A stretch of 61,079 nt of DNA, counting the filler, from Catajapyx aquilonaris (Eukaryota): NCBI GenBank assembly GCA_000934665.2. It is 3 parts of 3 records of this genome, joined end to end, with 100 filler letters (N's around TTAATTAATTAA, not from the genome) between each part and the next. Parts side by side here need not be neighbours in the genome. Positions count along the whole stretch, not along the records: positions 40,509 to 61,079 come from JYFJ02006328.1; 2 more parts are not named here. One strand, 5' to 3'. This document shows, one piece after another, positions 7,501-56,479 of the stretch. Position numbers and translations under genes: made by a program. A model generated the notes under the pieces. That model saw only the letters and a program-made list of their open reading frames with translations, had not been told where the DNA came from and did no database searches. The first letter of the stretch is position 1; every line of letters begins with the position of its first letter.

Positions 7501-7888
7501 TCCAGCATTTTATAGGTAACAGGTACAGAACAGAAATCATGTCTCTTTATTAAATCAGCTTTCAATATCAGTTATTCTAAAGATGGAATTACACAGTTCA
7601 GATTACGTGAAGTGTCTATGTTAATGTTTTCACTGGCAGGGTGGAGATGATGTAGCCATATATGTGCTGACAATGAACATGGGACCAACCAACTGCGACT
7701 CTGAAAATGATCTTGGCCCAGCATGTGATGTCAGTTCGGGTCATGTGAGTAACTTACAGTCACAGTTTACACTGTTCACGTTCCTTTCTTATACGTTACT
7801 TCCACAGAAAATGATTTCATGTTCTGTGACTGTCTTGAAGCGCCGTTCAACTTCCGTGCACACACTCCTCCACCACAATTGTGAATAA
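1510..7888 (+). CDS. Multicystatin (about 11 tandem cystatin-fold domains, first one partial), 5'-partial, no cathepsin domain
   Basis: Exons by GT/AG and frame: 1510-1776, 1836-2141, 2197-2490, 2837-3139, 3207-3533, 3595-3942, 4113-4517, 4595-5260, 6563-6827, 6996-7438, 7640-7744, 7808-7888 (TAA). Each unit repeats 'G(G/F)..D....V..AA.F(A/G)...K(A)xxQ|xxxG..Y.L...C.V.V......C'. No start codon or signal peptide is seen in the window. Confidence 0.85.
5505..5703. mobile_element. Palindromic MITE in a multicystatin intron (related copy at about 8178-8355)
   Basis: Arms 'gccgtgtttacatgtgagcgatttgac...' and '...gtcaaattgctcacatgtaaacgtggc' are near-perfect inverted repeats of about 75 nt. The same 'tttacatgtgagcgatttga' terminus recurs at about 8187. 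Confidence 0.7.
5840..6121. mobile_element. Tigger-like MITE
   Basis: Termini 'cagtgaaacctttctgtagtgga' and 'tccattgcagagatttcactg', with TA on the right side. Confidence 0.55.
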
Positions 7889-8615
7889 ATATGTTGTTAG
7901 TAAAATATTGTGATATTGTTTTTCGAAAATGTCAGTGTTAATATTGTTTCGACTTTAATGTGGAAAGAAACCTGTGCAGCCTTTCCAACTTTCACAATGG
8001 CAGATATAGTCATGTTCCATGATGTAAGCTTAGTTACGTAAATAGCATGTATTATTTTAAAATATATCCTTCTAGGCAGCAATTCTACATATTCTAGCAT
8101 GAGCAATAAGTCAACAGTCAAATTGGGTGTGAGGATTGGCTTCTTCCTCTTGCTCACACTCAACTATAACACACATTTAGGCTGCATTTACATGTGAGCG
8201 ATTTGATCAGGAATGTGCAGCAATGAGCATCATTGAGTGATGAAATCAATTGTTTGGGAGCGAAATGCGATTGTATTACTTTTGCCCTAAGCAATTGGTT
8301 TCTTAGCTCAGTGATGCTTATCCCTGGTCAAATCGCTCACATGGAATGAGGCTTTATTCAGAACTTCCTGTTTGTCCTGAATACTGGGGTAACATACCAA
8401 GTTTTGGTTTCTCAAAATATGAAACCATGGATACTCCACTGTACAAATTCAACATTATGGAACCAAACCTTATGTAATCAGCAGTTGAGCACATCAAACC
8501 TAAATTATCAAATCTGGAAGTCTGGTATGTATTACAAGTACATCAAACTTATCAAACAGAATCTGCATTCACCAGGTTGAGTTGGAATAATCTTAGCTCT
8601 ACTATTTTTTCAGAA

Positions 8616-10094
8616 ATGGCCATGAAGAGCAGACCTGCGTCATTATACAAATTGAGTGTAGTCCAGCTTGCTCGTGCTGCGAGATCAATGTGCTTAGATG
8701 CGGCTTCTCCGGATCCAAACCCACCAATCACCATGTCAACATTACGAAGCTTTGTGAAGCAGATTCCCAATTACGCCGCAAATGACTATGTCACTGAGCT
8801 CATTCTAGATTTTAACAGCCTGATGACTACAAGTCACACGATGAATTCGGGCATCCTAGCAGCAGCCTTACATCCGTCATGTACCAGGTTCACCTTTGAT
8901 GACACCAAGATCAGGTCAGAACATTTCAAGACAGTTTTGATGCAGGCTATGGCCGTCCTGTCCAATTTGGTCAGCCTGAACATCAACATCTGGACACCAA
9001 ACAGAACAGGAGAAGTTTTCGTGTCCATCTCAAGGTATTGCCGCAAGCTCGAGTGTCTCTCTATCCAGTGGGGCTTCCTGTCGTCCCAGTGTGCCAGGAT
9101 GCTGGTCAAGTGCAAAATGATCAGGACACTCAAGCTGGACATTGACTTGTCATTTATAGATGATATTGATGCGTTGCATGTACTGGACAATCTGCCTCTC
9201 CTGGAGAATTTTACCTGTGCCGTCATTAATCTTGGCAGGTTCTCTGAAAAACTAGCCAGGGCTGGTAAAAAGTACAAGCTAAAATGTCTGGTGCTGTCCA
9301 CATTTCATTACAAAACTAGTGACACTTGCACCTTGGACAACCTCTTCGCTGTCTTTCCTGATCTAGTTGTAGTGAATCTTCCGGGATATCTTGGACCATT
9401 AAGTCCACTCAACAGGCTGGCCAAATTGCAAGAAATTGGGATCCGCAACAGACGGCACGTTTCCGATGACATATTCGTGCAGATGCTGGCTGTTTCTCAA
9501 CCTTGGCTGCAAAGTTGTGAGCTGTATGGCTGGTTCTCCAACTTTTCCTTGATTTTCACAAGCTCCGGAACCAATTTCAACAAACTGACCAAGTTGGCGC
9601 TTTTCAAATGGAAGGAGGTGGATTTGGAGGCCATCAACATTTTTATGCCCAACCTGTGTGAGCTTAGCGTCAGGGAATGCCAAATGACGTCTGAGCCTTT
9701 TCACAGGTCTACGTTGCCACTGGTATTTACCAGTCTGAAAAGTCTGGAGGTCGAGGGCACATTTGTGACCAAGCAACACCTGAGGTACCTCTTGAGTGAT
9801 GCTCAAGGCATCGAAGAGCTGTGGGTGGCCTCGGACCAGCTGGACGATTCCTTGCTGATTGAGCTGCTTCAGTTGAACCCGATGAACCGGCTGAAGACTA
9901 TGTGCATCCAGAGCATTGCATTGACCAAGAGCTCCTTGCCGATCCTGGTGGAGAAGGTGAAGGAACCCAAAAGTGTGGAGCTGATTGGGAATCAGTGGAC
10001 CAACATGTTCACTCAGGAAGAACAGAAGTACTTTTATCAGCTTACAGATGGGCAATCTGAAACAAATTTTTGGTTCAAAAGTTCAACTGCTTAA
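8616..10094 (+). CDS. Single-coding-exon leucine-rich-repeat (RNI-like) protein of about 492 aa with a BC-box-like N-terminus
   Basis: Uninterrupted ORF. The first ATG at 8616 lies just after an acceptor-like 'ttttttcag'. Repeated LxxLxL units (NLVSLNI, KLECLSI, MIRTLKL, LLENFT, KLQEIGI, KLTKLAL, NLCELSV, SLKSLEV, GIEELWV). N-terminus 'RPASLYKLSVVQL'. Confidence 0.8.
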   Translation: MAMKSRPASLYKLSVVQLARAARSMCLDAASPDPNPPITMSTLRSFVKQIPNYAANDYVTELILDFNSLMTTSHTMNSGILAAALHPSCTRFTFDDTKIRSEHFKTVLMQAMAVLSNLVSLNINIWTPNRTGEVFVSISRYCRKLECLSIQWGFLSSQCARMLVKCKMIRTLKLDIDLSFIDDIDALHVLDNLPLLENFTCAVINLGRFSEKLARAGKKYKLKCLVLSTFHYKTSDTCTLDNLFAVFPDLVVVNLPGYLGPLSPLNRLAKLQEIGIRNRRHVSDDIFVQMLAVSQPWLQSCELYGWFSNFSLIFTSSGTNFNKLTKLALFKWKEVDLEAINIFMPNLCELSVRECQMTSEPFHRSTLPLVFTSLKSLEVEGTFVTKQHLRYLLSDAQGIEELWVASDQLDDSLLIELLQLNPMNRLKTMCIQSIALTKSSLPILVEKVKEPKSVELIGNQWTNMFTQEEQKYFYQLTDGQSETNFWFKSSTA

Positions 10095-14258: not shown

Positions 14259-15275
14259 ATGAAGGTCTTGATCACCTTTCTCTTTCCATTTGCTGTGATG
14301 GCCAGTATGCCTGGAGGATACGAAGTTGGAGACAAACGGGACGACAGGCTGTGGAAAGCACTTGACTTCGCATTTGGCCAGTTGGGATTTGGATCAACCT
14401 ACAAAGTCGTTGAGACTCATCAGCAGGTGAGTGGTTGTCAGTATGGACTGAAAATTACTTACTGACACGCTTCTTTTCAGATTGTCGATGGGATTAATTA
14501 CCATGTGGCCATGAGAGACAAGAATGGTGTTAATTGCGAGATGTACATTCATCGAAGCCTGGAAGGATCACACAGCTTGACTAAATCTACCTGCCCAAAA
14601 AACAGGCTGTTTAGAAGAAGCCATCAATGGAAGCTGATCGGTGGCTTTTCTGAAACTGATGTGAATGATGAGCATGTGCAGAAAGTGGTGAAATTCGCAA
14701 CCGATAAGCTACGTGGTGGTGACACTCCGTCTCTGACTGTAACGCGAGTGGTCAAGGCTGAAACGCAGGTAATGTTCCTTATCACCTTAAGCATTAATGG
14801 TTGCCACTTACTTGTTAGTATGTTAGGATGTCAAGCTTGGTTTACATCGGCTTCATTTTCTTTGTGTTGTTATGGTTGAAGTCGTCCAATCTACAGCAGG
14901 CAACATAACTACAACAGACATGGTTTTCATGGAGTGTATCCCAACCACAATGATAAATGCAAAATGACTTATATGGTGTCCCACATTTTACAATGACGTA
15001 GTGTGATTTGGGTTCTACGCTCATCAATGACATGCATTGTTGAATAAGTTGTGGCAGAAACTGTGGGTGACTGGGCCATGCTATTAATTATTTTTAATGC
15101 AGCAGGTTGATTATCTTACTTTGTAATTACATCATTGTTACTGCAGATCGTAGCTGGTGTGAACTATCAAATCACATTTGAAGCAACGAACGAAGGAAAA
15201 ACTATGCTGTGCTCAGTGCGAGTCTGGAGAACATTGAAGGACGAATATGAATTGACTTCCGGAAGCTGCCAGTAA
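14259..15275 (+). CDS. Secreted two-domain cystatin
   Basis: Exons 14259-14426, 14481-14768, 15147-15275. Hydrophobic leader MKVLITFLFPFAVMA; N-terminal 'PGG' and 'IGG'; canonical QxVxG loops across the introns (QQ|IVDG, TQ|IVAG); one C-terminal Cys pair per domain; linker 'RLFRRS'; AATAAA at about 15367. Confidence 0.9.
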
Positions 15276-20154: not shown

Positions 20155-20254
20155 NNNNNNNNNNNNNNNNNNNNNNNNNNNNNNNNNNNNNNNNNNNNTT
20201 AATTAATTAANNNNNNNNNNNNNNNNNNNNNNNNNNNNNNNNNNNNNNNNNNNN
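20155..20254. other. Artificial contig junction (100-nt gap with all-frame stop linker)
   Basis: N44-TTAATTAATTAA-N44. Confidence 0.95.
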
Positions 20255-30623: not shown

Positions 30624-30900
30624 ATTGGAATTAACTACAATTAATATTAGACCGCTGCAATGCTAGTATGTCTCATGTTTTCAGTTATTTTAAAATTAAA
30701 TTTAATTAATTTTACCCTGTAATAGAGAGAACAATGCCCTTATTGGGGGGGGGGGGGNNNNNNNNNNGGGGGTGGCACACCACCAATTTTCAGTCATTAA
30801 TAGCCTATAATTGTGAGGTTGTTTCCAGCAATGCTTGTTGCCTACCTTGAAACATGCCAATTGTAATTACTAACATCATTGGTTTATAGTGGTGTTTTAA

Positions 30901-31654: not shown

Positions 31655-34600
31655 ATGAATCCTGCCGAAGGAAGCAGTCTGGAGGCAGTGAAGAAGGCGG
31701 TGATGGATGGGTGCAGGAGCATGATGGAACCATGGATGAAGCAGATGGATGAGGGGATGAGCAGAATGGAGAGCTGGATGAAGAGTATGGACGGGACCAT
31801 GAGCAGGACGGAGCAGTGGACCAGGAGGATGACAGAGGCTCAGAGTAAGCAGTTAACCCCTTCACTGCCAGCTAGGCTGAAAGTGCCTAGATTTTCGATT
31901 ACTTGTACTCTGAAGATAAGGACAAGATATTTTACAAATAATAATTTAGTTATACTTAACCCTTCATGGAAAACACCATGCATGTGTTGGGAACAAACCG
32001 TTTTTGAATTTTTAAAAATCATGTCATGACTTATGAATCAACCCTCGTACTTGAGAATTAAATTAATTCCTATATGTGGCTTGCTGGCACTTCGGAAAAC
32101 TCCCAAATTTATTAAGCCCAATGATTTCAGCAAATTCACCTGGCATGATTCTCAAGGTAGACGTTCCCTATGTTTTCATGTCTTTCATAATTAAAGCAGC
32201 CTAACAGTTGGCCGGTATAGTACTTGAGTCTTGAGTTTTACAGGGATATCTTTAAAAATTAATTTATGGACTTCTGCATGAGGAAAATTTATTGTTCCCA
32301 ATACCTTCATAGTGTTTTGCATGAACATGTAAGTGTGTCTGCTATTATTTGTGAAATATTTTGTCCTTCAGAGTACATACACGTAATATAAAATATAGGC
32401 GTTTTTGGCCTAGCTGGTAGCGAAGGGGTTTTAAGGTGTTGTGACTTGCCTGGCAGTGATCCTGGATGTCATGATTCACTGTGATGAAACACAGTAACTC
32501 ACATAAGATCCTGCTTGTTCGTCACTTTGTAAAATTGGATTTAAAATATTTAAAATCTTGAAAGCATGCCAATTTGCTTTATTTCTCCTGTACAGAATGG
32601 CAGGAGGTAGTCCATTAAAGATAATATTACATAGAGAAGTATGTACAGTACTTACATATTGGATGAATGAATGTTACTGATTTGATGGACCATCCACACA
32701 ATCTGATGATAATGATGGCAAACCCATCAAAATGTATTGCCAAGAGCAGGCACAATGTAGATCTGCCATGTATCTCACATTCACTATGGATATCAAGGGT
32801 GAAAGATCAGAAGGGCATATGAACCAATGTTAACAAATGGGTGATAGGCCCTTCTGATCTTTCACCCTCGATATTGTATGTGGATGCCACACTTTACGAC
32901 CTTTTCTGGGTGTCATTTTAGATGTTCTTACTGAATATTCCCCAGAAGTACCACTGCATAGCATGAAAGAAGTTTTAGAGGGTATAGTTTCAAAGCACCC
33001 TGTAGGAATCTTGCAAGCGGATGAGAGCAGTGTGGAGGAAGATCTCCATTCCGGGCAAGATTCATGCGCTCAGGAAGAACGTGAAGGTGAAATTGGTCAG
33101 CTGGAGGCATGTGATGCCTTGCAACAAGTGAAGGTAATGTCCCATTTTATGACAAAATTGATACTCATGTTGGGTGGAAAACAACCTCTTGCATATGGAC
33201 AATGCTATTAATATATTAGGGGTAATCCGATGAAATGTTTTTTTCCCCCTTGTCTGATGAGGTGTCTTTTCTATTTTAGGTGACCTTCCCTGGCAGTGGG
33301 GAAGATGAGGCTCGACAGGTGACTGCTACTAAAAATAATTTCACCTCTGCTCAGCTGAATGGAGAGTTTGGAAGGGTGGAGACAGGCCAGAAATGTGTTC
33401 CTGCTAAGGAGGAGGTGGCTATCCTGATGCCTCGTTCTGCTACTGAACAGAAGTCATTCATTGCCACAGTACAGAACCAAAGTGCCGTGCCTCAGTTCAT
33501 CCCTCCTGCTCAGACCTCTGCTAGGGCCATGCTGGTGGCCCATGCCCGCAAGTATGATCTTGGAGAAGTGACGGTCAAACACATGGAAGACTGTAATCCA
33601 TGGTATGTCGTCGTATTCGGGATGAGATGAAATTATGTGTGTTTGCAAGTGTTGCCTCCTGCTAACAGGCTTTTGCAGGTCTTGCCGTTCTTGAATTTCT
33701 CATCTTGAATTTTTCATGCAGGCACCGGTTCTTGGTGTTGGTGACAATAGGTAGTGAGAAGTACTCTTCATTTGGAGAGGAGTTCAAATCATTTGAGGAG
33801 GCAGAAAAAGTGACCTGCCAGCGGGCAATGGAGGGAACCAAGGAGAGGATTCTTGCTCGACCTGTTCTTCCTAAGACATCCACCACTGAGCTGCTCCTCA
33901 AACAGCTGAAGTCTCTGCTCTCTAAGCATAGCAGAGGAGTGTTCAAGGACTACCTAGAAAGAGAATATGCCATTATGTTTAAGGAAGATCTACCTGATAA
34001 TTGGATAGATGTGATAAGCAAATCTTCCTGCTTCAGTGTCATCGCAGCAGCTGCAAACATTTCCATCATCAACTACATCCCCCAGGACCATGGCGGAAGT
34101 GGTGAGCCATATGCCACTGATCAGTTGCCACCTCAACTGGAAGTTCCACCACCCAGTGAAATGTCGGATTCAAGCTACGATGTGTTAGTTACGGAGATGA
34201 TCAGTGGGTGTGAGGTTGCAATCCGATTCGTTGGGAAGGATCACAATGACAAGTGAGTCAAAATTTGGAGGTCTGCCATATAGTTACATTGTTTTACCAA
34301 TTCAGAATATGTCCTTATTAATGCCAATATTTCAATTAAACTGCTGGGGTCCAAGGTGATATTTTGTGTTCTGTTGCAGGTTAGCCGATCTTATGAAGGA
34401 CATGGAGAGGTTTTACCTGGGTGCGGTGGAAGGAAATGGTGCCACTGGTAGTGATGAGGGAGATTTGGTTCCCATAACTGTGGAAGAATTGGTTGAGCAT
34501 GACCCATATGTGGTTATTGATAGCCCAACCTGCTACAGGGTGGATCTTGTTCGAGTAGGGGAAGGAGATGAAAGGGAGGAAAGCAGGGTAAATTGCCTCT

Positions 34601-36799
34601 GCTACCTGGTGGACCATGGTTCTGTGGAGGAGTTTTCTGTATCGCAACTGCGGAGGATACAGGGGAAATTTCTTCAGCTTCCTTATCAGGTAATACTGAG
34701 GTGACATAGTGTAACCTTTTGATACAATAACAGTGTTAATTAAAAATATGGTGGTTGTGATGGTGAGAGAAATGCAGGGTATAGGCCAGGTTCAACATTA
34801 AATTGCCATGTGAGCATACTGCTAATGTGTTTGGGGTTGTTGTTGCCTTCCACAGGCATCTAGTGATAAATGATAGGAGGAAACGGTACTGCAGGAATAA
34901 ATTTGAAGGAAAGGTGCTGTTTCTTATTCTTTCAGGCTGTCAAGTTCCACCTGTACGGCCTGTCCTGGTTTGCAGATTCAAGCATTGCACAAACTGCATT
35001 GGCTGAATACTGCAAATTGTATCGATCGCTGCTAGCTATGCCTCAGCCAGGCAATGAATATCTCATCAACGAGGGCAGTGAAGAGGATGAGGTGACCTGC
35101 GTGAGCCTCATTGATACAAGTGGTACCGAGGATGTGCACGTTAATGGCAAGATCATTACGAAAATCTTGACTTCACTATTGGCGCATAATCCCCTTCTTA
35201 CGGTAAGCATAGTTGGAGAATATTTTTAAATACAAGAGATGCATTTGATGATTGATGATCTTTAGGCTTTTACACAGATCAATCTAGTTATTTCAATTTT
35301 GGAAAATTATGTAGGTAGCTAGGTTTTATGTTTATGCAGGATGAGTGAGAAACGAATGTACCCATGATGCATGTCTTTTAGAGCGGTACAGTGAGATAAC
35401 ACATGGCGTTTTTCCTTGTTTACTTTTTTTTTCCTGGTATTCTGATGTGGATTTTGCAGACAAAGGATGACACAGAGTGTGTCCTGTTGAACGCCCAGTC
35501 CGATGGCCGTATATACATACGCACCTGTAGGGGACCCAGCGCCCACGTGGACATGCTTGTGGATTATGTAGCCAGCTCAATGGATGACAATGCCAAGCCT
35601 GTGGACGAATTGGTCATGGGGGGGTGTTTACTTGGCATTTTATTTGACTAAAGATGATGAGGAAAAGCCATGCCGAGTGACACCCACCACCATCAACCCA
35701 GATCGATCCGGGAAGGTAAGTTGAAATATGGGCAAAATTTTGATTTTATCTATTGTACTTGACAAGTACCCCACATTAGAGCTGCTGGTCACTTTTGTTT
35801 TATATACTGGCCTTTCATAGTCAGTGCATGAATATTTGGAAATTACAGTTGTTCTTGCAGAATGAGTTACTCAGATATTCAGAAACTCAACACAGTTACA
35901 AACAGACAAACTTCATTAGCCGCAAGAATGTCTGGCAGTTAATATTTCGCTGATAAGCATCATCCACATACTGAAAAATTGCATATTTTTATGTTCACAG
36001 ATCACCATGTTTGCCATGGATTTGGGCGAATGGCTGGATCTCAGCTTGGGTGAGATCTACCCTCTGGTTGACCTTGATTGCCCAATTAACCCTGCTGTGA
36101 ATTGCCCTTTGCCCGTATTGGGTACTAAACTTGCCAGCATTCCAGCTCAGGTAAGATGTTTTCAATGATCTTGTTGCGCAATTAATTGAAGAGCATGTAT
36201 TGAGGAATTATATGTCAGTTAAGTCCAACCTACGCTATTTGCAAAGTGGTTGAGGCTGGTATCGACGTGCGAGTTCCTCGTATGCGAGTCCTCTTATGTG
36301 AGAAAACTTGTACGTCAAGACGGACTCTTTGTCGCCTCAGGGCCCCTCTTGTCCCTCGAAAAGGGGATTAAAGTTGAAAATTTTCAACTTTTCCTCTTTC
36401 CTCGTATCCGGGCATGCGCAGTTGGCTCCTCGTATGCGAGAAACCTCGTACGTGGATACCGGCCTTTAGTTGGCAATGCAAAGTTGCAGAGTTTGATAGC
36501 CTTTATATCTGAAGTAGTGTATGTTGAGGTTAAAGATTTCTTCATTGTGTTATGCCCTGACTGATGCACAAACCTGATGCATTTGTTGCTATACTCCACA
36601 GGCCATTGAATGCCAGATTTCCGGGAACAGGTGCATATCACCTTGCATATCACTGGAACATTTCTGGAACGTGTTTGATAAGGAGGAAAGTGTCCTTATC
36701 AAAGCAGTGTCCCTGGGAAATGCTGCTGCAAATGGAGCCACTACCGCTCCTGTCCCTGAAGTGATTCTCAAGAAGATCGTTTCCCAGAATGATACTTGA
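31655..36799 (+). CDS. TDRD7/tapas-like protein (LOTUS-like, dsRBD-like and two extended Tudor domains); one frameshift, so a possible pseudogene or assembly error
   Basis: Exons 31655-31844, 32922-33133, 33280-33602, 33722-34252, 34380-34689, 34936-35202, 35460-35715, 36001-36150, 36602-36799 (TGA). All are phase-compatible except the 256-nt exon, which has one extra G in a G7 run at about 35618-35624. Motifs: 'LKSLLSKHSRGVF..LEREY...FKEDLPDNW' (LOTUS), 'VTIGSEKYSS...EEAEK' (dsRBD-like), 'CYRV...YLVDHG...FLQLPYQ|AVKFHLYGL' (Tudor-SN). The first exon is the least certain. Confidence 0.75.
31857..32428. mobile_element. piggyBac-like MITE in the first intron (related partial inverted copy at about 56900-57361)
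   Basis: 'ttaa|ccccttcactgccagctagg' and 'cctagctggtagcgaagggg|tt'. Confidence 0.65.
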
Positions 36800-40408: not shown

Positions 40409-40508
40409 NNNNNNNNNNNNNNNNNNNNNNNNNNNNNNNNNNNNNNNNNNNNTTAATTAATTAANNNNNNNNNNNNNNNNNNNNNNNNNNNNNNNNNNNN
40501 NNNNNNNN
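40409..40508. other. Artificial contig junction (100-nt gap with all-frame stop linker)
   Basis: N44-TTAATTAATTAA-N44. Confidence 0.95.
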
Positions 40509-42800: not shown

Positions 42801-43519
42801 NAAAAAAAAAAAAAAAACGGTAACAATGCGAGCCCTTGGCGACGACCGAAACAAACTCGCTTATGCATGGGCAGCATATGGGGATTCGACATGTCCACGC
42901 TCCGGCGGCCTTACGGCCACAAAAATGGAGCAATGGACACAAAGATTACACCAAAAAATAGGACATGATCTGGCGCAGGGCACCTTCGGCGTCATTTTAC
43001 CATTTACAGCCTAGAAGAATCGTTGTTCGAATCTGGAGTGCCTGCTGCTAGCGAGGTGAGATAGAGCGAAGACGATGCCGGGGAAGAAGTCTGCCCCGGG
43101 TTCCGCCCGCGCCCCTCGCCGGCCGAACTGGGATGACCGTGAAAAAGAGGCCATAGTGGCCCGCAATGGAAGACACTCCAGGACTCGTGGAAGGGGCCCT
43201 GGGCCGTGTTTATCCGTGTTCGATCCCCGCCTTACGGACACACAGCTGCTGTCGGGGAAGCGGCCATTTTTGAGAGCGACAGGTGACTTACAGGCATACT
43301 TACAGGTGCTCCCACCCACCCGTATCTTTGCGGGCCTTTCCTTCCCGCAGCCCTTACGGGAGCGCGACACGATAATTCCACTTCGGGAGTTTTTTTTAGT
43401 TGCCGGGGCGATACGGGCGTTTGCGACTTGCGGGCCTCCCGTAAAGTCCACGAGAATCCGCCCCTACACCTACATGGAAAAGTCTTTCATGACCCGAGCA
43501 ACGCCGGGTATCCTGCTAG
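42295..43519 (+). mobile_element. Non-autonomous Helitron, head-to-tail with the previous copy
   Basis: Starts with TC immediately after the preceding CTAG and ends with the same 'cccgagcaacgccgggtatcctgctag' followed by T. Confidence 0.8.
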
Positions 43520-43550
<31 letters not shown>

Positions 43551-44798
43551 ATGAATGAATAAATGAATAAATAAAAATGATACTGGAAAAGGCGTCTAAT
43601 CAAGCGACGGGTCAAAACGCGATTCCTCGATAGCAGTCACAAACGTGATTGCCACTTTCGAAAATATTAAGTGGCCCGCAATTTGAAAACAGCGGTTATT
43701 TTCAAGCGCTACGTGTCTAATCCCTCCTTCTGAAGGAGTCACTTTACCACAAAGACATCTGCTACACATACTGCTAGATGCATAACTGGCAAGAAAAAGT
43801 GAAGCCAGTTTGTGCTAGGGGTTTGTACCAGTCGCCCAGAGCAAAGATGGCGCCTTTAGGCGACTTGGATCGATCTATCTGCCGTGGTGGCCTGTACGTA
43901 GTTGCTGGGCATCTTCAAGGGATGCCCCGCGCCCCTGGAAACGTCCCACTGATGTCCGGACCATCTGCACCGGGGCCGCCCCTAAGGCCGCTTCTGCTGC
44001 CCCGCCCAAAGTAACGATGACCCCATCTTTACTTTGGGCGTGATTGGCATCACTTTGCTTGTGCTGCTTCCTGGATGATTTTATAACAGTGTTTGTTTTT
44101 GCCCACGGACGTGACTGGAAACCTCGGGACAAAATTCCCCTTGCAATAAGTAATAAGATATGCACTAGCCTTTCCCTTCAGTATTCTCTCCTTCCTCCAT
44201 TACTCTAATATAAAAAGTGAATAAATAACATCTTATGCCTTGCATAGAAATTGACCAAACTACGAGTGAAGGTTGAGACACGCCTGGGACGTGACTTTTC
44301 ATCTTCTGTGGCCTAAAGAAAAAACATGGAATAATTTTCGCATTGAATATTTGTTATGCGCCAAGAATACCTCAAATGGCACTCCTATTTCTTTGTATGT
44401 TATCTGGTTTTCAGATGTCACATTAAGGCCAGGAATTAGCTGGGACAAGAATTGCACGTTTTTTCACTTTTTAACCTCCCCAGTGATAAACCTAGTGGAA
44501 GATAAAGTGGACTTAATCCCTTAATTAGGCGGGACAAAAAAAATCGCGATCTGCTTCTGCCATCTCCTTGTTGACAAACATTTCAAGAATAAGAATGATT
44601 TTGACCTCTTCGGAAAGTGTGAAGGAAAGCATTATTGTGTATTACAGTACATTGTACTACGCCAACTAGGAGAAATGGCAGGATTAATAAGCATCATTAC
44701 CGACAGATTCTAACCTCCATATCTTTCTCAAGTTACGATTTCATAAATTCCCCCAACTGCTTCTATTGATCGGGACTGGACTGGTAAGAACCAATTGC

Positions 44799-44800
<2 letters not shown>

Positions 44801-44854
<54 letters not shown>
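44801..44854. repeat. (CT)n microsatellite
   Basis: Pure dinucleotide run; it produces the spurious 'ERERER' tail of ORF 44741..45667. Confidence 0.95.
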
Positions 44855-44857
<3 letters not shown>

Positions 44858-44872
44858 CCCCCCAATAAATAC

Positions 44873-47800
44873 TTTCAAAATGTTGACGACATGATCATGC
44901 CCCTCCTCTTCTGCGAGGCCAAAGGGTGTCTTCACATCCTTGTCCTCGGCCCATATGTCCGCTCCCTTGGATATAAGGAAGCGAACCAGTTGGGGTTGGT
45001 CGAACCATGCCGCATATTGGAGTGGGGTCCATTCCCGCAATCCTCCCTTGTCCTCCAGCCCTGCCCCTTTCTCCAGGAGTAGGGCCACAACCTGGACGTG
45101 GCCTCTCTCTGAAGAGAGGTGGATGGGCTGGTTCCCATTCTTGTCCCTTGCCACCACATCCGCCCCTTTCATGATCAGGGTTTGGCATATGGAGAGGTGT
45201 CCTTCCGATGCTGCCAGGTGGAGGGGTGTCCAGCCCCCATGGTCTCCCTGGTGGACAGGCCATCCTGCACCCAGCAGGTATGCGACCACCTCTTCCCTTC
45301 CTCTCTCGGCAGCACAGTGGAGCGCACTCTTTCCATCCTCAACCCTCTCCTCCACCCACCTCTTCACCCCACGCCCTTCCTCCTCCACCATCCTCTTCAC
45401 CTCTTCCAGCCTCCCTTCCCTGCATGCCTCCACGAACATTGACATCTGCAAGAGAACAGCAAGACCTACATTATAAGGCGCATCATCTCTCATCGCTATA
45501 CACATGTAACAGCCACGGCCCTGAGGTTGCACCATCATCACTATGGTCACCATTATTGTTGCTTGTAGCCCAACAATATGGATGGCAGTGGCAACCCCTG
45601 GAGGTTGGAGCGAAACCTCAGGCGACGGTGCAACCTTCTCCGGCCCTGATCTTATTGCGGCAGCCATTTGAAAACAAAACTACAGGTAACATTGCTTCGT
45701 TGTCTGAGTGTATGGGAGGGAATACCCACTTCGTATAGAGGAACGTACAGGTCCGCTTAGACCCGAAGTATATATGATACGAAATATTTGTACAGCTGAA
45801 ACAGTGCATTCAAGATTATATAAATACTTCAGGCAATCCCCTCGGCGCCAAGTGCTTTGAATCACGCGCAGAAAAGTGAACGCAAATAATATTTTTAACC
45901 CTCAAACCGATGAAGGTGTATTTTTCATCCCATCTAGTGTGTGTGGAAGGGAATCTCCAAATCTTCCCCCAGCCCCAAATGCAGCCTCTCGCGGCCCTGA
46001 CCAAGACCATCCTTGAATGATAAAAAATGCTCTTTGGAGTGGACACCACATTATGGCCGCGTGACCATTCGCACATTCTGAGATCTTTCGTGTATGTTCC
46101 ACCCACATTCTACATGTAGTGCTTGTGAAGAGAGAGCAAAAAATCTCACTCATTAACGCCTTAAAGAAGTGCTGTAAAAATTCGCGAACCTCTGGTACTT
46201 AAAATTGGCCGGGCTCCGGCTGCCAAAGACAGTAATTCAGTTGACGCCTTACCACCTTTATCTTCCTGTCCAGGAACAACTGGACCTTTTTCTCCACGTC
46301 AGAAGATGACACTCTTGAGGACACATCTCGTGTCATCATTTGCTGGATTAGACCTGCTTCGTCTCCATGGGTGCGTGTAAAACCCTGTACGAAATGATCC
46401 CCCTTCCTGAGGGAGAGGAAGGCCCTCCTCCTCCCATCCTGGTCCCCTCCGAATGGGGACAACATCTCGTACAATATCAGGCCCATTGAATAGACGTCAG
46501 TCTTGGGACCGTACTCACTCCCGCTCATCTGCTCGGGGGAGCAGTAGAGTCTGGTCCCAACACCGCCAGTCAACTCTGGTTGGGACTGATCAGGGGGGAC
46601 TCCGGGTTGGGATGGTTGGACTGGACATGGAGGGTGGGAGGGGGAAGGAGGAGGATGGGCCAGGAGGGAGGTGGAGAGACCAAAGTCCCCAATCTTCACA
46701 CTCTTTCCATCCAGGGCAAAAAGAATATTGTAAGGTTTCAGATCGCGGTGGATCAGTCCCTGCGAGTGGATGTAACAAACTGCGGATGCCATCTGTCCGA
46801 AGAGGGTGAGTTTGGCGGACTTGCCCATGTTCAATCTTCCCCCGTCCATCTTGTGTCCCAGGGTTTCCTTCTCGCATAGTTCGAGCTGCATGAAGAGGAA
46901 GTCCGTGGTTGGTCCTGCCACCGTCATGGGAGCGGAGAAGTACTCGGATGCTGCCTCCGAGGCCTCCCTCGCCTCTGGACCAGACCTATTGGAGCATGTG
47001 GCCGTCATGGCGTCCACCTCCTTGTAGATCCAACATGGAGAGCTCTCAGTCCAGGCGTGATGGAACTTCACAACGTGATCGTGGTCCAGTCGAGCCAGTG
47101 CCTTGACCTCCCTCAGGATGAACTCCTTCAGTTGATAGTCTTGAGGCAGAGGAACCCTCTTCATCGCGTAACGTGCCTCTGCCAGCTTCAGTTCAGCCTC
47201 GGTCACGACTCCGAAGGACCCCACACCCAAGATGGACTCCTGCTTGTAGTCCGACATGTACCTGGACACCACTGTCGTTTCCTTTGCAGCTTTTTGCTCG
47301 TTGTCCTCGGCCCTAAGGGATTGAAATCAATGAGTGTTACGAGCATAATATTTGTCAAGTGGCAATGTATTTTTTTATGTATACGGTAAAGGAAAAGGAA
47401 GCCACGATTTCAAAATTCACGCTGAAAGTTATTCCATTCCTGTGTTAATCTAATGAACAACCTGTATGCCAAGGTAGCATCGACAAGAACATTCTTTATC
47501 ACCATAGCAATGATCAACTGATATTTTATTACTCACTGCAAGATCATTAGAGAATTAGCATTATTTCTGTGTGCAGGAAACAAGATAACTTATTTGTCAA
47601 GTACACTTTATTGGCTTACAAGTATGGAATCAATTTATCAAGTTCTGAATAGTTTGAATAATGCAGCGTTCGCCATTCGTCAACTAACATGTAGTACTAT
47701 CCCGCGTATTATTATCGTGATCCCAAGCAAACCATGCATGAATATAGCTTTATGAACTCCCAGTTGGCAGTCTACAGAAATGAGACTTGCAATGAAGCAA

Positions 47801-48893
47801 ATAATGAATCCTCTTACTGTTAGAGCATATTAACTACACGTACAACTGAAAAATAGTCGTACGTGTTAAGTCAACGGATTTCATGCTCTCACCTGGCCTG
47901 CATGGCATGAGTCCACTTCAGGTGATCCATGATGAATCGATGCACCTGTACATGATTTTTGAAAAGGGCCAGAGAGGCGGGTGTGGCCCCTTCCTTGTCC
48001 GTGGCCTGTGGGTCACTCTTTCCCTCCAACAAGAGGAGACTGGCCACATCCAGATGGCCGAACATGCAGGCCAAGTGCAGTGGGGTGTGGCCAGTGTAGG
48101 TGGTTCGGGTGTCCGAGGAAGCCCCTCTGTCCAGGAGGAGTCTGCAAGTCTCCACCAGTCCCCTCCTGGCAGACCAGTGGAGGGCTGTCCTTCCCTCCAC
48201 GTCCTCCGTGTCCACCTGTTCCTGTCCAATCAAGGCCAGAAGGGTCCGACAGATGCTGACCTTCCTGGCCCGACACGCCACCATCAGGGGGGTCTCCCCA
48301 TGTCCGTTCCTCTTGTTCACCTCTTCTTCTCCTCTTTCTCCCAACAACCTCCGGACGTCCTCTTCCCTTCCCATGGCCGCCATGACGTGAACGTCATCTT
48401 GCATGCCCAGCAGGAACCTCACCATCCCCTTCCTGCCCTTCAGGACTGCCACCCTCTGAGGGGTCATCTTCTCTTCATTCTTGTCTCCAGGATCTGCCCC
48501 CCACTCCAGGAGAAGCCTCCCCACTTGGACGTTCCCAGCCTCCGCCGCCGTGTGCAGAGGGGTGTCCCCCACCTTGGTCTTGGCCATTGGGTGTGCCCCT
48601 TCCTCCAGCAGAAGGCGGCAGACCTGCAGGTGGTTGAACTCTGATGCCTCGTGCAGGGCAGTCCTGTCCTGGTGAGTGGAGGCCAGGTTGACCCTTGCCC
48701 CCCTCTTGACCAGTTCCTCGCACACTAGAATCCAACCACGTCTGGAGGCCACCATCAGTGGGGTCACTCCATTCCTGGTGCGGGCGTTCACGTCAGCTCC
48801 TTTGTCCAGCAACATCTTGACCAACGTCACAGACCCATTCTCCGCCGCGATGTGCAAGTCCACAAGGCTGGTGTCTTCTTCTGCCGCCGCCAT
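44873..48893 (-). CDS. Ankyrin-repeat / eIF2-alpha-kinase-like / ankyrin-repeat fusion protein (at least 878 aa, 3' exon not found)
   Basis: Exons 48893-47893 (about 10 ANK, ends AG|gtgaga), 47312-46253 (ccttag|G..., kinase, ends GTG|gtaagg) and 45445-44873 (ttgcag|ATG, about 6 ANK, ends AAA|gtattt). Phases 2 and 0 are both compatible. Kinase motifs: LGVGSFGVV, YAMKRV, REVKALARLDH...AW.E, insert, LFMQLELCE, HRDLKPYN, KIGDFGL, TGGVGTRLYCSPEQ, DVYSMGLILYEM. Confidence 0.8.
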
Positions 48894-51592
48894 GATTATA
48901 TTCTCCACAAAAGTGCAGTGATCAACTAATGTTACAACGTCAAGCAAACGTCAATATGACGGAATGGTCGGGAAAGTGGTTGTTCCCAGCAGCCATTTCC
49001 CAGCAGTCCATCAGACAAAGAGATATTCTGATACCAACCCGAATAAACCCCCAATCTGACAAGTCAGGCGAGAAAGAGTGAAGCGCGCTAAGGTGATAAC
49101 ATATCTCACTTCTCCTAGCAACCCAACAGGCTTCGACACCCAGGCCATCAGGTGATAGTTTCAAGGGTCGCTTTTGACGTCAAGCGTACCTTTCATCAGA
49201 TTACGACCCTTTCTCACAATCAGCCCTTACCATATACTCCATCCATTCCTCGTACACTATTTTTGGACGTATTCATGCAGATATTTGGAGATTTTTGGTT
49301 TACATCAGAAAACTGGCATGTACCGTAGGCCTAAAGTTTTACTTTAATCCTAACCTGCATTATTTTCCGCGAAATTTAAAATCTCCGTCTCCGAGAACAA
49401 TCCCAATTATACCATGGCTGCCACAGTGTCAGGATGTGATCCCGATGTTTTATTGATTCATTTGCGAACACCGGAAGCCATATTTCCTTCTGCCTTTTTT
49501 CTTTTCTTTCCATCCATATAGCGTGTTGCAGTTTCGTTTCATATTCATTATTTTGTAGGTAAGCCCAACTGTGGCGAATCTCACTTAACTCCTAGCAACC
49601 CATCAGATTGAGACACATGCGACTAAAACATCTGCATGGTCATCAGGTGATGGATTCCAAGGTTCGGATTTGAAGTGCCTGATGGATAAGGGCAGATGTA
49701 CATTTCATCAGATTATAATATGATTCTCTTTATTACGTGTCCTTGATCTTTGTAAGGCCAGGTACATCCTGCCTATTTTATTTAACATACCGGTACTTAT
49801 AATTTATTTTAAACGGCTTTTTCATTTTACAGGTTAATAAACAATATCTGATAATAAGTACAGTGCATTGTTAACAGTAACCCGGAAGTATCATCAGTTT
49901 TCTTTGCCACCATCTGAAATAATGTGAAGTGACAATTATTTTGCTGTATAAGTTACGGCTCGAGTCCGCATTGATGTTACAACTCCAGTCGATGTGGCCT
50001 GGAATGATTTATGCAGGATTAATCGCTTGTACTATAGGAATCGTGTAACCTTGGCCTCGTAAGCTGTAACTTCTTTCTCAAATATGTGAAAGCGTACTTG
50101 ACGGTTTCTTCAGCAGGCCTTTTGGGAGTATTTTAAAAGAAATTATTACAGAATAAATTGTTGGCTTTCGGGAGATATTTCAAGTCACTATAGAAAAAGA
50201 AAGCTTCAGATGTAAATTTCCCCTTGAAAACCCAAGCAACAGTATATTGCTAACCCACATTTTGCATACAGAAATGACGAAGTGGTTACATTTTGATTTA
50301 ATTGTGCAAAACACATGCGGAGAATATTACAAAAGTACCTGCATTATTGTGGCAGCAACAAAAGGTGTGTTTTGGTAGAGATTGGCGTTTATTATTTTGT
50401 ATCTCCAGATTTATTAATGTTACATGCACCCAACAGAAAGGAAATGTCTGTGTAATAAAATTACAGCTATGCAAAATAATATGCCATGTTGTCATGGCAT
50501 TATAAGCGAACGGGACAATAAATCCCGCTAAAATGGATCATATTTTAATACACGGAATCCCCCCTTGATAAATTTTGATAAATAACTTACAAACACGCAA
50601 GGGATGAATTTTTATGACTGACAAATGCGAAGGAAGAAATTCCTGGTATTACCACTCAAAAAAGTTACACCGCTAAATTTTTTAAATGGTTCAAGTATTG
50701 CGAATCAAACTACGAGTATTTCATATAATATTATTATAAGTAATGCCAGTAATGCCTCAATTTCGGCCAGATTTGATGGTATATGAAACAGATCTGGCAA
50801 AAATTATGTCCCATTTTACTAAGCAGATGGCATTGATTTTTTAAAAATTGCAGATGACCAACCATCGTTGCATTCTAGGCTTCTTTGGGGTCGCAGGCAT
50901 ATACGTATATCCCAGTGACCTTTAACCACATCCCAATATGAACAAGTGTAAAAATGTAGATAAAGTCTTGGAGTACCGTACTTGGTTTTTTTTTGTGGAA
51001 TAAAAGGTTTACATGGTTGCTTTATCCGAGCTGATATCATTATCCCAGAGCTGATATCATTATGCTCTCTGGAACTCATCCCAGAAGCAACAACTGAGGG
51101 CGGCGAAGAGAATATTTATGCTTCAGTCGAGAGTATCCCTAGGATCATCAAAATTGACATTAAAATATGATGCTTAATATCTGGGACGAATAAAGTGCTG
51201 GGAGCGGAAGAGGTGGAAACTCATTCCGAAAGTTGGGTGTCAGTAACATACTGGTCTCATCTAATATTTTTAAAAAAGATGGATGAATGATAGCATAATA
51301 CTAACGAATAAGTGAGAACAATAATAATATGCTGGACTGTTATTATTTTGTTATTGGTTATAAATGGAAATCCTGCAGAGAGATTATAAAGAAGCTGATG
51401 CCTAGCAGAGAAACCACATCATTATTGCCATTTGCAAACTTCGATATCAGCACCAGAATCAACAACAACAAATAACAACAGGTGTCATTACAATAGCCAC
51501 AGTTGTAATAGTTAAATATTGGTAATTGAGCAGGCTTGTCCTTCACGCATGAAGCTTACCCAAGATGACTTTTACTTCCCCGTTTTACACAG

Positions 51593-53040: not shown

Positions 53041-55657
53041 TCATGCCTTGAAAGTTCGCACGACCCTCACGACAACCCGCCTGCAAATTGGGCAAGTGTC
53101 CATTTCCATCCCGCAAGTCAGACACGTCGCAAGGTGTCCGCACTCCAGCAGCACACAGTCCACTGGGGCTGCCATGCAGATCTTGCAGGCCTCTTCGTCC
53201 GGCAGGGGGTCCAAGGCTGCTGTGGCCATCATCTGCTCGGCAGACTAAAGAGTAAGTGAAAATTTATTTCAACAGTTAATCTCTATTAATTATTTCTATT
53301 TCCCAACACACACGCAGCAAGATAATGAAGGCCATTTTTTCTGATTATTTTCGATGACTGCGGCTGTTGTGAACAACCAGATTGAGCATGCGGACCCATG
53401 CACTGGAGGTGAAGAATGCCAATATGCCATGCATTGTACTTGGCGACTGTAGAGTAGAAAGCATGCAGAATAAAAGTGGTGTTTGTTGTGATGCCTATTA
53501 TAGATTCAGTTGAATCCGGATGTAACAGACTTCAAGGAACCACGGAAATCAGTATGTTATAAATAACCAAGGTCTGTCATAGCCGAATACAGAGGCACCG
53601 TAATACCATATGTTGTGATTCGTCTTTCAATTTGCCAGATAATTCCTATTTAGAACAAGAAGCATTTTCTTAATCAAAAGTATAACTTATTAATGTTATT
53701 ATTTTCCCTCACTATGAGTTGAGAATGGGCATGATAAGAAAAGTCATGACTTGTTTAAATTAATGTAAACGTAAATTTGAAATTAATCCTGGTTGAAACA
53801 AAAAAAAGGGGTTTTTCCAACCCTGCTATTACGTAATATTTTGGTCGTGCCATAAATTCTCCCTCTTTTTGTACATTGTACTGGTTTAAGATAACCTCCT
53901 TTTTTCTCTCTCCCATTTTCCTTGCGCCGGGTCTTACATGCGCCTGCCTTGTTTCAGTGCTTTCATTCCGCCACGGAGGTCTTACTACCCTTTTTTTCAC
54001 TGAAGGGAATGTTTTTGATCTAATTTAAAATATGTTTCTTATGCTCGACTTGAAATCCTGTAATAGGAAAAATCTTAATCATGAATTTCAGCTGAACAGT
54101 TACACTATCAAAACATTGATAAGTACATATCTCATATATATATCTCATGCTCTTTAATTTCTGCTTTAGTTACCGCAGTACCACTCCGCCTCCCCTTTTG
54201 GTTTAGTTGTCTTTTCATAATATTAACTGTTCAAAAAAAATGAAGCAAAAATAGCTGCATTTGCCGCCATTTTTCCTAGATGGCGGTCGTAATAGGTAGC
54301 TAAAATCATGGCGACAAGTTGATTTTGCAACTTCTTATTGTCCTTAACAACTTGCCACAAACACATCAAAATTATCATAAAAATTACAGCGGAACAAAAT
54401 TATTGAAGAATTCTTCCCGCACTAATCCAGGCGAAGGTAGTAATGGACATTGTCCGCTCGATTCTGCCTGAACGGTTACAGTTATCATAATATTGATAGA
54501 GTAGGCTACTCTTCGATGCAATATATAATTCTTCCAGTCATGTTTAATGTCTATTTATTTTTCAGAAAATGAACTGTTAAAAAGATAAAACAGAGAAACC
54601 TGTTTTTCCCGCCAGGTGGGAAATGGCGACAAGTCGATTTCGAAACTTCTCATTATGCTTAACAACTTCCCACAAACAGATCAAAACACGCAATATGAGC
54701 GAAAACTGATTTTTTGACCAAATCAGCCCGGACTATAACCCTGGAATGCGTGGTGACCCCCATGTCAATGCATTTTCAGCAATTTCAGTAACAAAAACCC
54801 GGCCTATGTGGCCATGTAGAGTACTTGTACTACGACCGCTCCTGCACCTCGGGTCGATGCCAGTGAGCTTCAGCGGAGAAAATTTTAACTTACTCTTGCC
54901 TTTCTGAGGGGTGTCCCACAGCGGACAGGAGAGACAACACCTTTCTACATCCACCTTGACCACCACCAACATACACGACACAATGTGTGAGCCAACCGAC
55001 TCAATGCGTTTGCTAACATTTGGGTGGTCTCCCGACCCACAGATCCTGCAATTTCCTTTACAAGTTCAATTATATCTCAACCACTCTTATTCATAGATAC
55101 TAAACTGATAAGGTCCAATTAATTATCGAAGTATGCCCAAATAAATACCTCCAGAAGCTGGATGACATCAACATGTTTCATCTCCTTTGCAAGGTGAAAG
55201 GGCGTCTTCCCTTCCTCATCTCTGGCCGTCTTGTCTGCTCCCTTGGAGAGGAGGAACCAAACCAGTTCTAGTCGGTTCCACCTTGCCGCACAGTGGAGTG
55301 GGGTCACATCCCACAATCCCTTGTCCTCCAGCCCTGCCCCTTCCTCCAGGAGTAACTCCACGATCTGGACGTGGCCTCTGTCTGAAGTGAAGTGGATGGG
55401 CTGGTCCCCAAGGTTGCTCTTTGCCTGCACATCCGCCCCTTCCCTGATCAGTGTCTGGCACGTGCACAGGTGTCTTCCATATGCTGCCAGGTGGAGGGGT
55501 GTCCTGCCCCAAAGGTCTCCCTGGTTGACAGGCCATCCTTCACCCAGCAGGTATGCGACCACCTCCTCCCTTCCTCTCCATGCAGCAAGGTGCAATCCAC
55601 TCCACCCCTTTGCATCCTTCACCTCCACATACTCCTCCCCGTCATCCTCATGCACCT
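53041..55657 (-). CDS. Ankyrin-repeat plus C-terminal C3HC4 RING (IAP/RNF34-type) protein, 5' end unresolved
   Basis: ANK exon about 55657-55149 (donor GAG|gtattt, phase 0) is paralogous to 45445-44873. RING exon 53244-53041 (ctttag|TCT, phase 0) encodes 'CKICM....CVLLECGH..TC..C.....CPICR...RTFKA*'. Confidence 0.75.
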
Positions 55658-56479
55658 CTACCAGTACCAGTAAGAAGCTAATTAGTGCAGTTGAACGCAT
55701 GCAACATGTGGCAATAAAATCATTCGTCCCTATTGTGTTGTCGTACAGTACACACCCTAAATTTTTAACAATGCCTGTTGACGACACCTGATTATTTAAA
55801 TTTAATTTATGGCATAATGATCATTTTCATGACAAGGTCTCGTTATTAAGAATTGACCGAATGTTTCAAAAATGCAATCCTTATATTCATCAAATCATGA
55901 TTGCACATTGATTTTTACGCTTCATTTTCCTCCAGACTACCGTTCCTTAATTTGTCAGTTACAATCATTGCAGATTGTGATGAAGCCAAAATTATGGGCA
56001 ATAATAAAATTCCTGCGAAACAGAAGTTTTGCATTCAATCTCTGTCAACCACGATGATTTGCATACTTGATGTGGTATGTTTATACCTGCTAATACATAG
56101 GCCCTATTGGAAGCAATCACCCTGCATCTTCAAGTAATTTCTGCACAAGCTTCGACATAAATAGTAGTCAGCAGGAGACCATCAATTATGGCACAATTTG
56201 TGCCTTTGCCAAACCTTTCTTGAAATCTGCGGTGGAATATTTCAGTGGTAATTGCATGCAAAATTGTTGCACTGTATGATCTTTGTTATTTACACCCATT
56301 CTTATCTATGCAAATCCCAAAATTATAATGGACCTCATGAAATACTACCTTCATTTCTGCACATAATTCTGGTCTGTCTGGATGCAAATGGTGGTCATTC
56401 CCAGCAAATGTTGTGATTCCATTTCCTTTCTTGCGTATGTGGTTAGATCAGTTCAAATATTTCTTTGCGATATAAAGAG

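Follow-up and report, generated by a model that had tools for sequence, protein, structure and literature searches.

Results

Three exons at a locus of Catajapyx aquilonaris

The window analysed here is a stretch of 61,079 nt, made of three joined parts, from the genome assembly of Catajapyx aquilonaris (GCA_000934665.2). In the part that comes from JYFJ02006328.1 lies a candidate gene in which a protein kinase of the eIF2-alpha kinase family is preceded, and probably also followed, by an array of ankyrin (ANK) repeats. All gene coordinates refer to the minus strand. The segment between positions 44741 and 48950 contains three long open reading frames (ORFs), of 353, 375 and 312 codons when counted between stops. 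The portions assigned to exons are open over 333, 353 and at least 191 codons, and joining the three exons produces a single open frame of 921 codons.

Exon 1 (48893..47893) begins with the ATG at 48893, the first of its frame, the preceding stop being at 48951-48953. Counted by eye on the translation, it carries 10 ANK repeats (the Pfam Ank model marks 7 stretches), and it covers residues 1-333 together with two bases of codon 334. The donor, CAG/GTGAGA (the slash marks the splice boundary), follows base 47893. Intron 1 (47313..47892; 580 nt, phase 2, G+C 0.355) thus begins at 47892 and ends in the acceptor TCCCTTAG/G, before base 47312. Exon 2 (47312..46253) encodes a short linker and a complete eIF2-alpha-family kinase domain, in which an SRYxxDY motif, an insert of about 45 residues, a Pro-rich activation loop and a Gly at the position of the alphaG Thr can be recognised. 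It is followed, after base 46253, by the donor GTG/GTAAGG, with the intron beginning at 46252. Intron 2, if spliced, spans 45446..46252 (807 nt, phase 0) and ends in the acceptor TTCTCTTGCAG/ATG, before base 45445. Exon 3 (45445..44741) carries 6 ANK repeats, again counted by eye (4 stretches by the Pfam model), and then a tail reading ...KVFIGGG(RE)n... up to a TGA at 44743-44741.

Pfam finds Ank in exon 1 (2.8e-59), Pkinase in exon 2 (4.2e-41) and Ank again in exon 3 (3.4e-35), and detects no family other than ANK in exons 1 and 3. Base composition follows the same borders. G+C amounts to 0.60, 0.56 and 0.58 in exons 1, 2 and 3 versus 0.36 and 0.46 in the introns, while G+C at third codon positions (GC3) is 0.74, 0.67 and 0.67 in the exons versus 0.44 in the open stretch directly upstream of exon 3. 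Exon-like G+C and GC3 stop exactly at the predicted splice sites. Neither a signal peptide nor a transmembrane (TM) segment was found in the protein; the highest 19-residue hydropathy value, 1.52, falls within an ANK helix, and the protein begins with an acidic N-terminus.

An earlier note on this DNA had described three exons with GT-AG sites and compatible phases, which together would encode about 10 ANK repeats, a kinase and about 6 further ANK repeats in a protein without signal peptide or TM segment. The layout is confirmed by the sequence, the Pfam matches and the joined frame, and the lack of targeting segments is borne out by the hydropathy maximum and the acidic N-terminus. What needed correction was the end of the gene. 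The note had placed it at 44873, where there is no stop; the frame extends to the TGA at 44743-44741. The open C-terminal tail includes a G9(AG)27 microsatellite (44801-44863, minus strand), read as GGG(RE)n. Slippage within this repeat would alter the tail, and all three frames close about 25 codons or fewer beyond it. A partial paralogue of exon 3, described below, holds the same frame (...EVFIW...) to its own stop nine codons on, and none of 12 ORFs examined downstream has a Pfam match that would mark a further exon. The GT at 44872 is probably not a donor, since the paralogue keeps the ...VFI... frame and no recognisable exon lies downstream.

Family membership and catalytic residues of the kinase exon

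Among PDB sequences, the kinase exon matches PERK best (3e-49 for 4x7h and 5.5e-49 for 3qd2), followed by GCN2 (3e-38), HRI (2e-34) and PKR (2.5e-34). Among the entries listed, the eIF2-alpha kinases score 111-171 bits, whereas the next family, that of the calcium-dependent kinases (CDPK), reaches 74 bits (1e-19). Structure prediction, too, places PERK first. An AlphaFold2 model of the exon, built on 39 aligned sequences, has a mean pLDDT of 86 and a pTM of 0.83, its only disordered part being the Pro-rich activation loop (residues 214-244). In a Foldseek comparison with the PDB, ranks 1-13 were all occupied by PERK, PKR and GCN2 coming next, and the first other kinase listed stood at rank 45. 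The ESM Atlas returned generic kinase clusters only. No second kinase exon was found in the window by tblastn at E 1e-3.

Residue by residue, the domain appears complete. The GxGxxG motif, the lysine of AMK, the alphaC Glu, HRDLKPxN, DFG and GTxxYxSPEQ are all present. The catalytic motif columns, conserved in 41-47 of 47 named kinase units of PKR, PERK, HRI and GCN2, are all identical in the Catajapyx kinase, and the invariant columns H188, R189, D190, N195, D209, G211, G252, T253 and E260 are unchanged. In the 47 named units, 56 columns reach a conservation of 85% or more, and the Catajapyx kinase retains 48 of them; the eight non-identical ones involve the pairs Y/F, I/M, M/L, V/T, I/V, L/M, E/D and P/V. 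The insert between beta4 and beta5, about 45 residues lying between ...AWTE and DFLFMQLELC, was modelled as two helices with a pLDDT of about 80. At the start of the domain, D21 of the SR(F/Y)xxD(F/Y) motif aligns with D in 221 and with E in 73 of 311 kinase units of relatives. We take this motif to be linked with the Arg-Asp pair in the back-to-back dimer that PKR forms. A Pfam scan found none of the modules that accompany known members of the family: luminal domain, dsRBD, Z-alpha, HRI N-terminal domain, RWD, pseudokinase or HisRS-like domain.

Altogether, sequence comparison and the predicted fold indicate that the kinase belongs to the eIF2-alpha kinase (PEK) family, that it is catalytically complete and that PERK is its nearest relative there. 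Three further statements of the earlier note are upheld by these data: that all catalytic motifs are intact, that the kinase is of the eIF2-alpha type (the note named PERK and PKR as closest, of which PERK is borne out as the nearest), and that it is accompanied by no known sensor module of the family.

One gene or several

The join between exons 1 and 2 is well supported, and we consider it very probably real. The kinase frame opens merely five codons ahead of acceptor 1, and the first Met of the kinase exon (M19) sits within the SR(F/Y)xxD(F/Y) motif, with S16 and R17 preceding it. In 311 kinase units of relatives, S is found at the position of S16 in 241 and R at that of R17 in 284. Because these two conserved residues lie upstream of M19, the coding sequence of exon 2 must continue from an upstream exon. 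Exon 1, 580 nt away from the kinase exon, offers a near-consensus donor in the right phase.

These same features bear on the notion that the locus consists of three unrelated neighbouring genes, or of an unexpressed relic. Every ORF can indeed be closed on its own. However, the kinase ORF has no Met ahead of the conserved SRY motif; the frames of 333, 353 and 191 codons have all remained open; the gaps between them measure just 580 and 807 nt; and the exon-like values of G+C and GC3 reach precisely as far as the predicted splice sites. We regard this explanation as very improbable.

The join between exons 2 and 3 appears probable too, with a lesser degree of confidence than the first. Donor 2 (GTAAGG) lies about six residues beyond the last kinase helix, while acceptor 2 has a strong pyrimidine tract and falls right where the first ANK repeat begins, in a phase 0 to phase 0 junction. 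The drop of GC3 to 0.44 upstream of this acceptor favours the join, and the 807 nt between the two exons contain neither AATAAA nor ATTAAA.

A number of observations weigh against a single gene of three exons. The exons can each be read alone: exon 1, if unspliced, ends at once at a TGA inside donor 1; exon 2, if unspliced, stops 17 codons past donor 2, at 46199-46201; and exon 3 opens with an ATG. Intron 1 harbours two AATAAA sequences, at 47612 and 47530. Exon 3 has one further copy in the window, and in the 5.4 kb upstream of that copy no kinase exon was found; nor did the databases searched yield an orthologue or ANK-bearing relative that would confirm the gene model.

Several of these points would be accounted for by two genes, namely a two-exon ANK-kinase gene ending at 46199-46201 and a small ANK-only gene starting from the ATG at 45445, the latter being related to the copy at 55136-55628. 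The ATG that opens exon 3 right after the acceptor, the in-frame stop 17 codons past donor 2, and the occurrence of the exon 3 paralogue without a kinase exon are all as such an arrangement would have them. It leaves, however, a strong donor 2 and a strong acceptor 2 with matching phases (0/0), and it calls for a first gene that ends in an interval devoid of AATAAA and ATTAAA. Moreover, the paralogue consists of repeats 2-6 only; since it lacks the first repeat and the ATG, it is no guide to the form of a free-standing gene. We therefore see two genes as possible, though on the unlikely side.

The two AATAAA sequences of intron 1 are the only ones on the minus strand between 43500 and 49300. 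They may allow a short, ANK-only transcript ending after exon 1, or they may have arisen by chance in AT-rich DNA. An ANK-only product from exon 1 is conceivable, because unspliced exon 1 would stop at the TGA of the donor and both AATAAA sequences lie in the intron that follows.

Taking these points together, the explanation that we prefer, at roughly even odds, is an intact, lineage-specific gene for a cytosolic PEK-family kinase of about 921 residues, to which the ANK array of exon 1 is spliced and that of exon 3 probably is as well.

An orphan lineage among eIF2-alpha kinases

A HMMER search of 1.84 billion representative proteins returned 501 proteins at E 1e-30 or better. None of the best 150 of these exceeds 45% identity to the Catajapyx kinase. 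The best match is a mite protein annotated as eIF2AK3, which owes its high score to its two kinase domains.

The phylogenetic tree comprised the Catajapyx kinase and 71 kinase units. These were our own selection of named references and top unnamed matches, and they came from 66 proteins among the 258 nearest relatives. It was obtained by a careful IQ-TREE search and combined with the approximately unbiased (AU) test; a quicker earlier tree was set aside, having been beaten by a constrained tree. The tree was built without an outgroup kinase, and the placement of the Catajapyx sequence inside the eIF2-alpha kinase family follows from the gap in scores and from the family-specific columns that it shares, both described above. 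PKR (support 100/98) and HRI (100/97) form clades that do not include the Catajapyx kinase, and GCN2 excludes it too. The kinase sits on a long terminal branch (1.0 versus a median of 0.4) attached between a PERK-like grade and the side of the tree that holds PKR, HRI and GCN2. Forcing it to group with PKR costs 5.6 log-likelihood units, and this arrangement is not rejected (p-AU 0.224). In sum, the kinase represents a fast-evolving orphan lineage that falls outside the clades of PKR, HRI and GCN2. For the phylogeny that the earlier note had called for, this means that the kinase lies within none of those three clades and may have either PERK or PKR as its closest neighbour.

By our own parsing, 61 of the 258 nearest relatives contain more than one kinase unit of the eIF2AK type. 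They include the mite protein annotated as eIF2AK3, several Pristionchus proteins and fish PKRs, and some of them may be merged gene models. These tandem-kinase relatives point to repeated local expansion of the kinase family in invertebrates.

ANK repeats in relatives and in the literature

The combination of ANK repeats with a kinase of this family was sought from both sides. In precomputed Pfam lists, the ANK family occurs in none of the 120 longer relatives listed and in none of the 120 relatives of similar length listed; our own Pfam scan found ANK in 0 of 25 top representatives; and neither ANK exon matched any of the 258 nearest relatives at E 1e-3. Searching from the side of the ANK exon, the results were swamped by ankyrins, and a kinase was present in just one of 120 listed proteins, an unrelated one (28 bits to the Catajapyx kinase). 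These database searches cover the best matches and existing gene models, and an absence within that range is not proof. No ANK-bearing eIF2-alpha kinase was found in the literature searched, as judged on titles and the openings of abstracts. Searches of the kind that the earlier note had proposed across arthropods have disclosed no ANK-bearing relative. A kinase of the eIF2AK family with an ANK array ahead of it, and probably a second array after it, is a layout that we encountered in none of the databases or papers searched.

A departure in the substrate-docking helix

The segment that precedes helix alphaG reads PF.T.ME(R/K) in the family and PFGGDQDGR in the Catajapyx kinase. Two differences stand out in it. 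The first, which counts against eIF2-alpha as the substrate, is a Gly in the column of the alphaG Thr. Among 336 kinase units of 318 proteins, 277 have T in this column, 15 have S, 21 a gap and 5 have G, and in the alignment of relatives no fewer than 90% of the sequences carry the Thr. The second, which may point the same way, is an Asp in place of the alphaG Glu three residues after the Thr, with one residue inserted beside it. Since the segment PFGGDQDGR contains no Thr or Ser at all, realignment cannot remove the difference. From the T-x-x-E spacing and the numbering of human PKR, we take the Thr column to be that of Thr487.

A study on PKR (PMC11556786) states that a non-canonical alphaG helix confers eIF2-alpha specificity on the eIF2-alpha kinases. 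There, Thr487 counts as one of a small number of sites in human PKR under strong constraint, a further point against eIF2-alpha as substrate here; it is described as stabilising alphaG and as inducing a change in eIF2-alpha that is needed for phosphorylation, in a substrate interface that otherwise tolerates variation (PMC11556786). As the Thr that PKR needs for eIF2-alpha is a Gly in the Catajapyx protein, use of this substrate may be weakened or shifted. The expectation that eIF2-alpha is the substrate is lowered, not removed. The earlier note had spoken of an apparently active eIF2-alpha kinase; the intact catalytic residues agree with the first half of that description, and the Gly at the alphaG Thr casts doubt on the second.

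An architecture of the same kind could contain a kinase that no longer acts on eIF2-alpha, a neo-functionalised member of the family that has another substrate, or serves mainly for autophosphorylation or as a scaffold. This idea concerns the mechanism only and is compatible with either gene model. Along with the Gly, the inserted residue and the functional constraint on Thr487 given in PMC11556786, the very long terminal branch (1.0 versus a median of 0.4) and the position in none of the four named families speak in its favour. On the other hand, the 48 of 56 family columns that are retained include the G-T of the activation loop, SPE and the ...L(S)LRKG of alphaG; a Gly occupies the same position in 5 of the 336 units of relatives as well; and, in PMC11556786, the rest of the PKR interface is said to tolerate variation. 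A change of substrate remains in our eyes a tentative proposition, less probable than retention of the one typical of the family.

A partial paralogue of exon 3 and the ANK surface

A partial paralogue of exon 3 lies at 55136-55628 (minus strand); across 496 nt, its DNA is 77.8% identical with that of 44860-45355. The similarity is confined to ANK repeats 2-6 and does not continue into the flanks. The ORF that contains it is intact and runs over 233 codons (55122-55820). Two candidates present themselves for its 5' end: the ATG at 55700, behind which comes a hydrophobic stretch, and a weak acceptor near 55657. Of 29 ORFs examined for exons upstream of the paralogue, only the ANK ORF has a Pfam match, and within 5.4 kb upstream no other exon was recognised. 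The paralogue was also considered as an upstream exon of the gene described here and was rejected: its possible donor is in phase 0, whereas the sole AG before the ATG of exon 1 would be in phase 1.

Exon 3 and the paralogue were compared over 156 aligned codons, giving a synonymous divergence (dS) of 0.27 and a non-synonymous divergence (dN) of 0.24, with dN/dS 0.88. The surface class was defined as five target-facing positions per repeat, which we take from designed ANK proteins, and was fixed before counting. Differences are concentrated in this class, affecting 18 of 23 surface positions versus 39 of 133 others (Fisher 2e-5), in a comparison that involves a single pair, small counts and site classes adopted rather than derived. 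At the surface, dN rises to 0.59 versus a dS of 0.27, and non-synonymous changes at 24 of 59 surface sites exceed synonymous changes overall, at 25 of 109 sites (p 0.02). The pattern is as for diversifying selection on a binding surface, and is suggestive of it. What tempers this interpretation, besides the size of the sample, is that the surface positions are the least constrained ones in any ANK protein. The idea of variable ANK arrays, put forward in the earlier note, is in keeping with the surface positions being the most variable in the one paralogue pair compared.

Other features of the window

On the plus strand, a run of ORFs at 2197-7516 and 14466-14876 gives weak cystatin-type matches (PF00031, 1.4e-5 and 8.8e-6; SQAPI, 1.3e-5), which suggests a putative cystatin-like gene of several domains, in which 4571-5296 would form a Pro-rich exon. 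The ORF at 34360-34701 (plus strand) has a borderline Tudor match (E 1.3e-4; 22.5 bits versus a cut-off of 23) and is surrounded, within 33280-35226 (plus strand), by several ORFs without a family match. A single ORF of 538 codons at 8478-10091 (plus strand) has no Pfam match at E 0.001. Runs of N occur at 20155-20254 and 40409-40508, each made of 44 N, 12 bases and 44 N; another run, of 10 N, lies at 30758-30767, and a single N at 42801 falls in a poly-A/Lys run. All of them, taken to be withheld or unresolved stretches, are outside the gene.

Discussion

The gene that we propose has counterparts in several known systems, none of which it reproduces. By sequence and predicted fold, the kinase is nearest to PERK (EIF2AK3), with which it has in common the beta4-beta5 insert, a long activation loop and an SRYxxDF-type start of the domain. 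PERK, however, has a signal peptide, a luminal domain and a TM segment, whereas the Catajapyx protein lacks all three and has ANK arrays instead. It also differs from PERK in the Gly at the alphaG Thr, and it is not nested among animal PERKs. With PKR (EIF2AK2) and fish PKZ it would share a cytosolic location, N-terminal repeats in the place of a sensor and fast-evolving contact surfaces, and a clade uniting it with PKR is not rejected by the AU test. Unlike these proteins, it has no dsRBD or Z-alpha, it falls outside the PKR clade and it probably has ANK repeats on its C-terminal side as well. HRI and GCN2 are set apart by domains that the Catajapyx protein does not have (HRI N-terminal, RWD, pseudokinase and HisRS-like) and by forming clades that leave it outside.

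An ANK array placed ahead of a kinase-like domain recalls RNase L, whose ANK repeats bind the activating ligand, and the earlier note had drawn this parallel. The likeness proves superficial. The Catajapyx protein has no KEN ribonuclease domain, probably has ANK repeats behind the kinase as well, and has a kinase of the eIF2AK type with all catalytic residues. Furthermore, RNase L is absent among the best 60 of 358 PDB matches of the ANK exon, which resembles RNase L no more closely than it does ankyrins or designed repeats. ANK repeats and a kinase are likewise combined in one chain in ILK, ANKK1/RIPK4, TNNI3K and DAPK1, the kinases of which belong to other groups; in our own search, the sole protein with both ANK and kinase among 120 listed scored 28 bits against the Catajapyx kinase.

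By analogy with PKR, PERK, HRI and GCN2, the grooves of the ANK arrays might bind a protein or a small ligand. Binding would relieve autoinhibition, or would pair two kinase domains through the conserved SRYxxD(F/Y) interface of the N-lobe. The conserved Thr of the activation loop would then be autophosphorylated, and the kinase would go on to phosphorylate its substrate, most likely Ser51 of eIF2-alpha, so that translation would be lowered. A putative immune role, which the earlier note had suggested in the form of a PKR substitute, would fit the fast evolution of the protein and its variable ANK surface. A more far-reaching scenario, which we put forward as speculative and rather improbable, is that an arthropod lineage without PKR built cytosolic sensors for translational arrest. 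In these, diversifying ANK arrays on one or both sides of the kinase would sense proteins or ligands of pathogens, leading to dimerisation and shut-off.

The usual account of the eIF2-alpha kinases of animals names four sensors, PERK, PKR, HRI and GCN2, and accepts fish PKZ as the sole addition; arthropods, as far as we know, are without PKR. For this reason, the gene is a candidate for coupling the detection of pathogens or stress to translational arrest in such a lineage. The Gly in alphaG makes the protein a natural test of how much change the docking helix tolerates before eIF2-alpha is lost as a substrate. An intact member of the family with ANK arrays as its only other domains would be evidence that a quite different recognition module can be fitted to the kinase cassette. 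If the sensor scenario is true, the Catajapyx protein would represent a convergent, ANK-based counterpart of PKR and PKZ, and a fifth kind of sensor among the eIF2-alpha kinases of animals.

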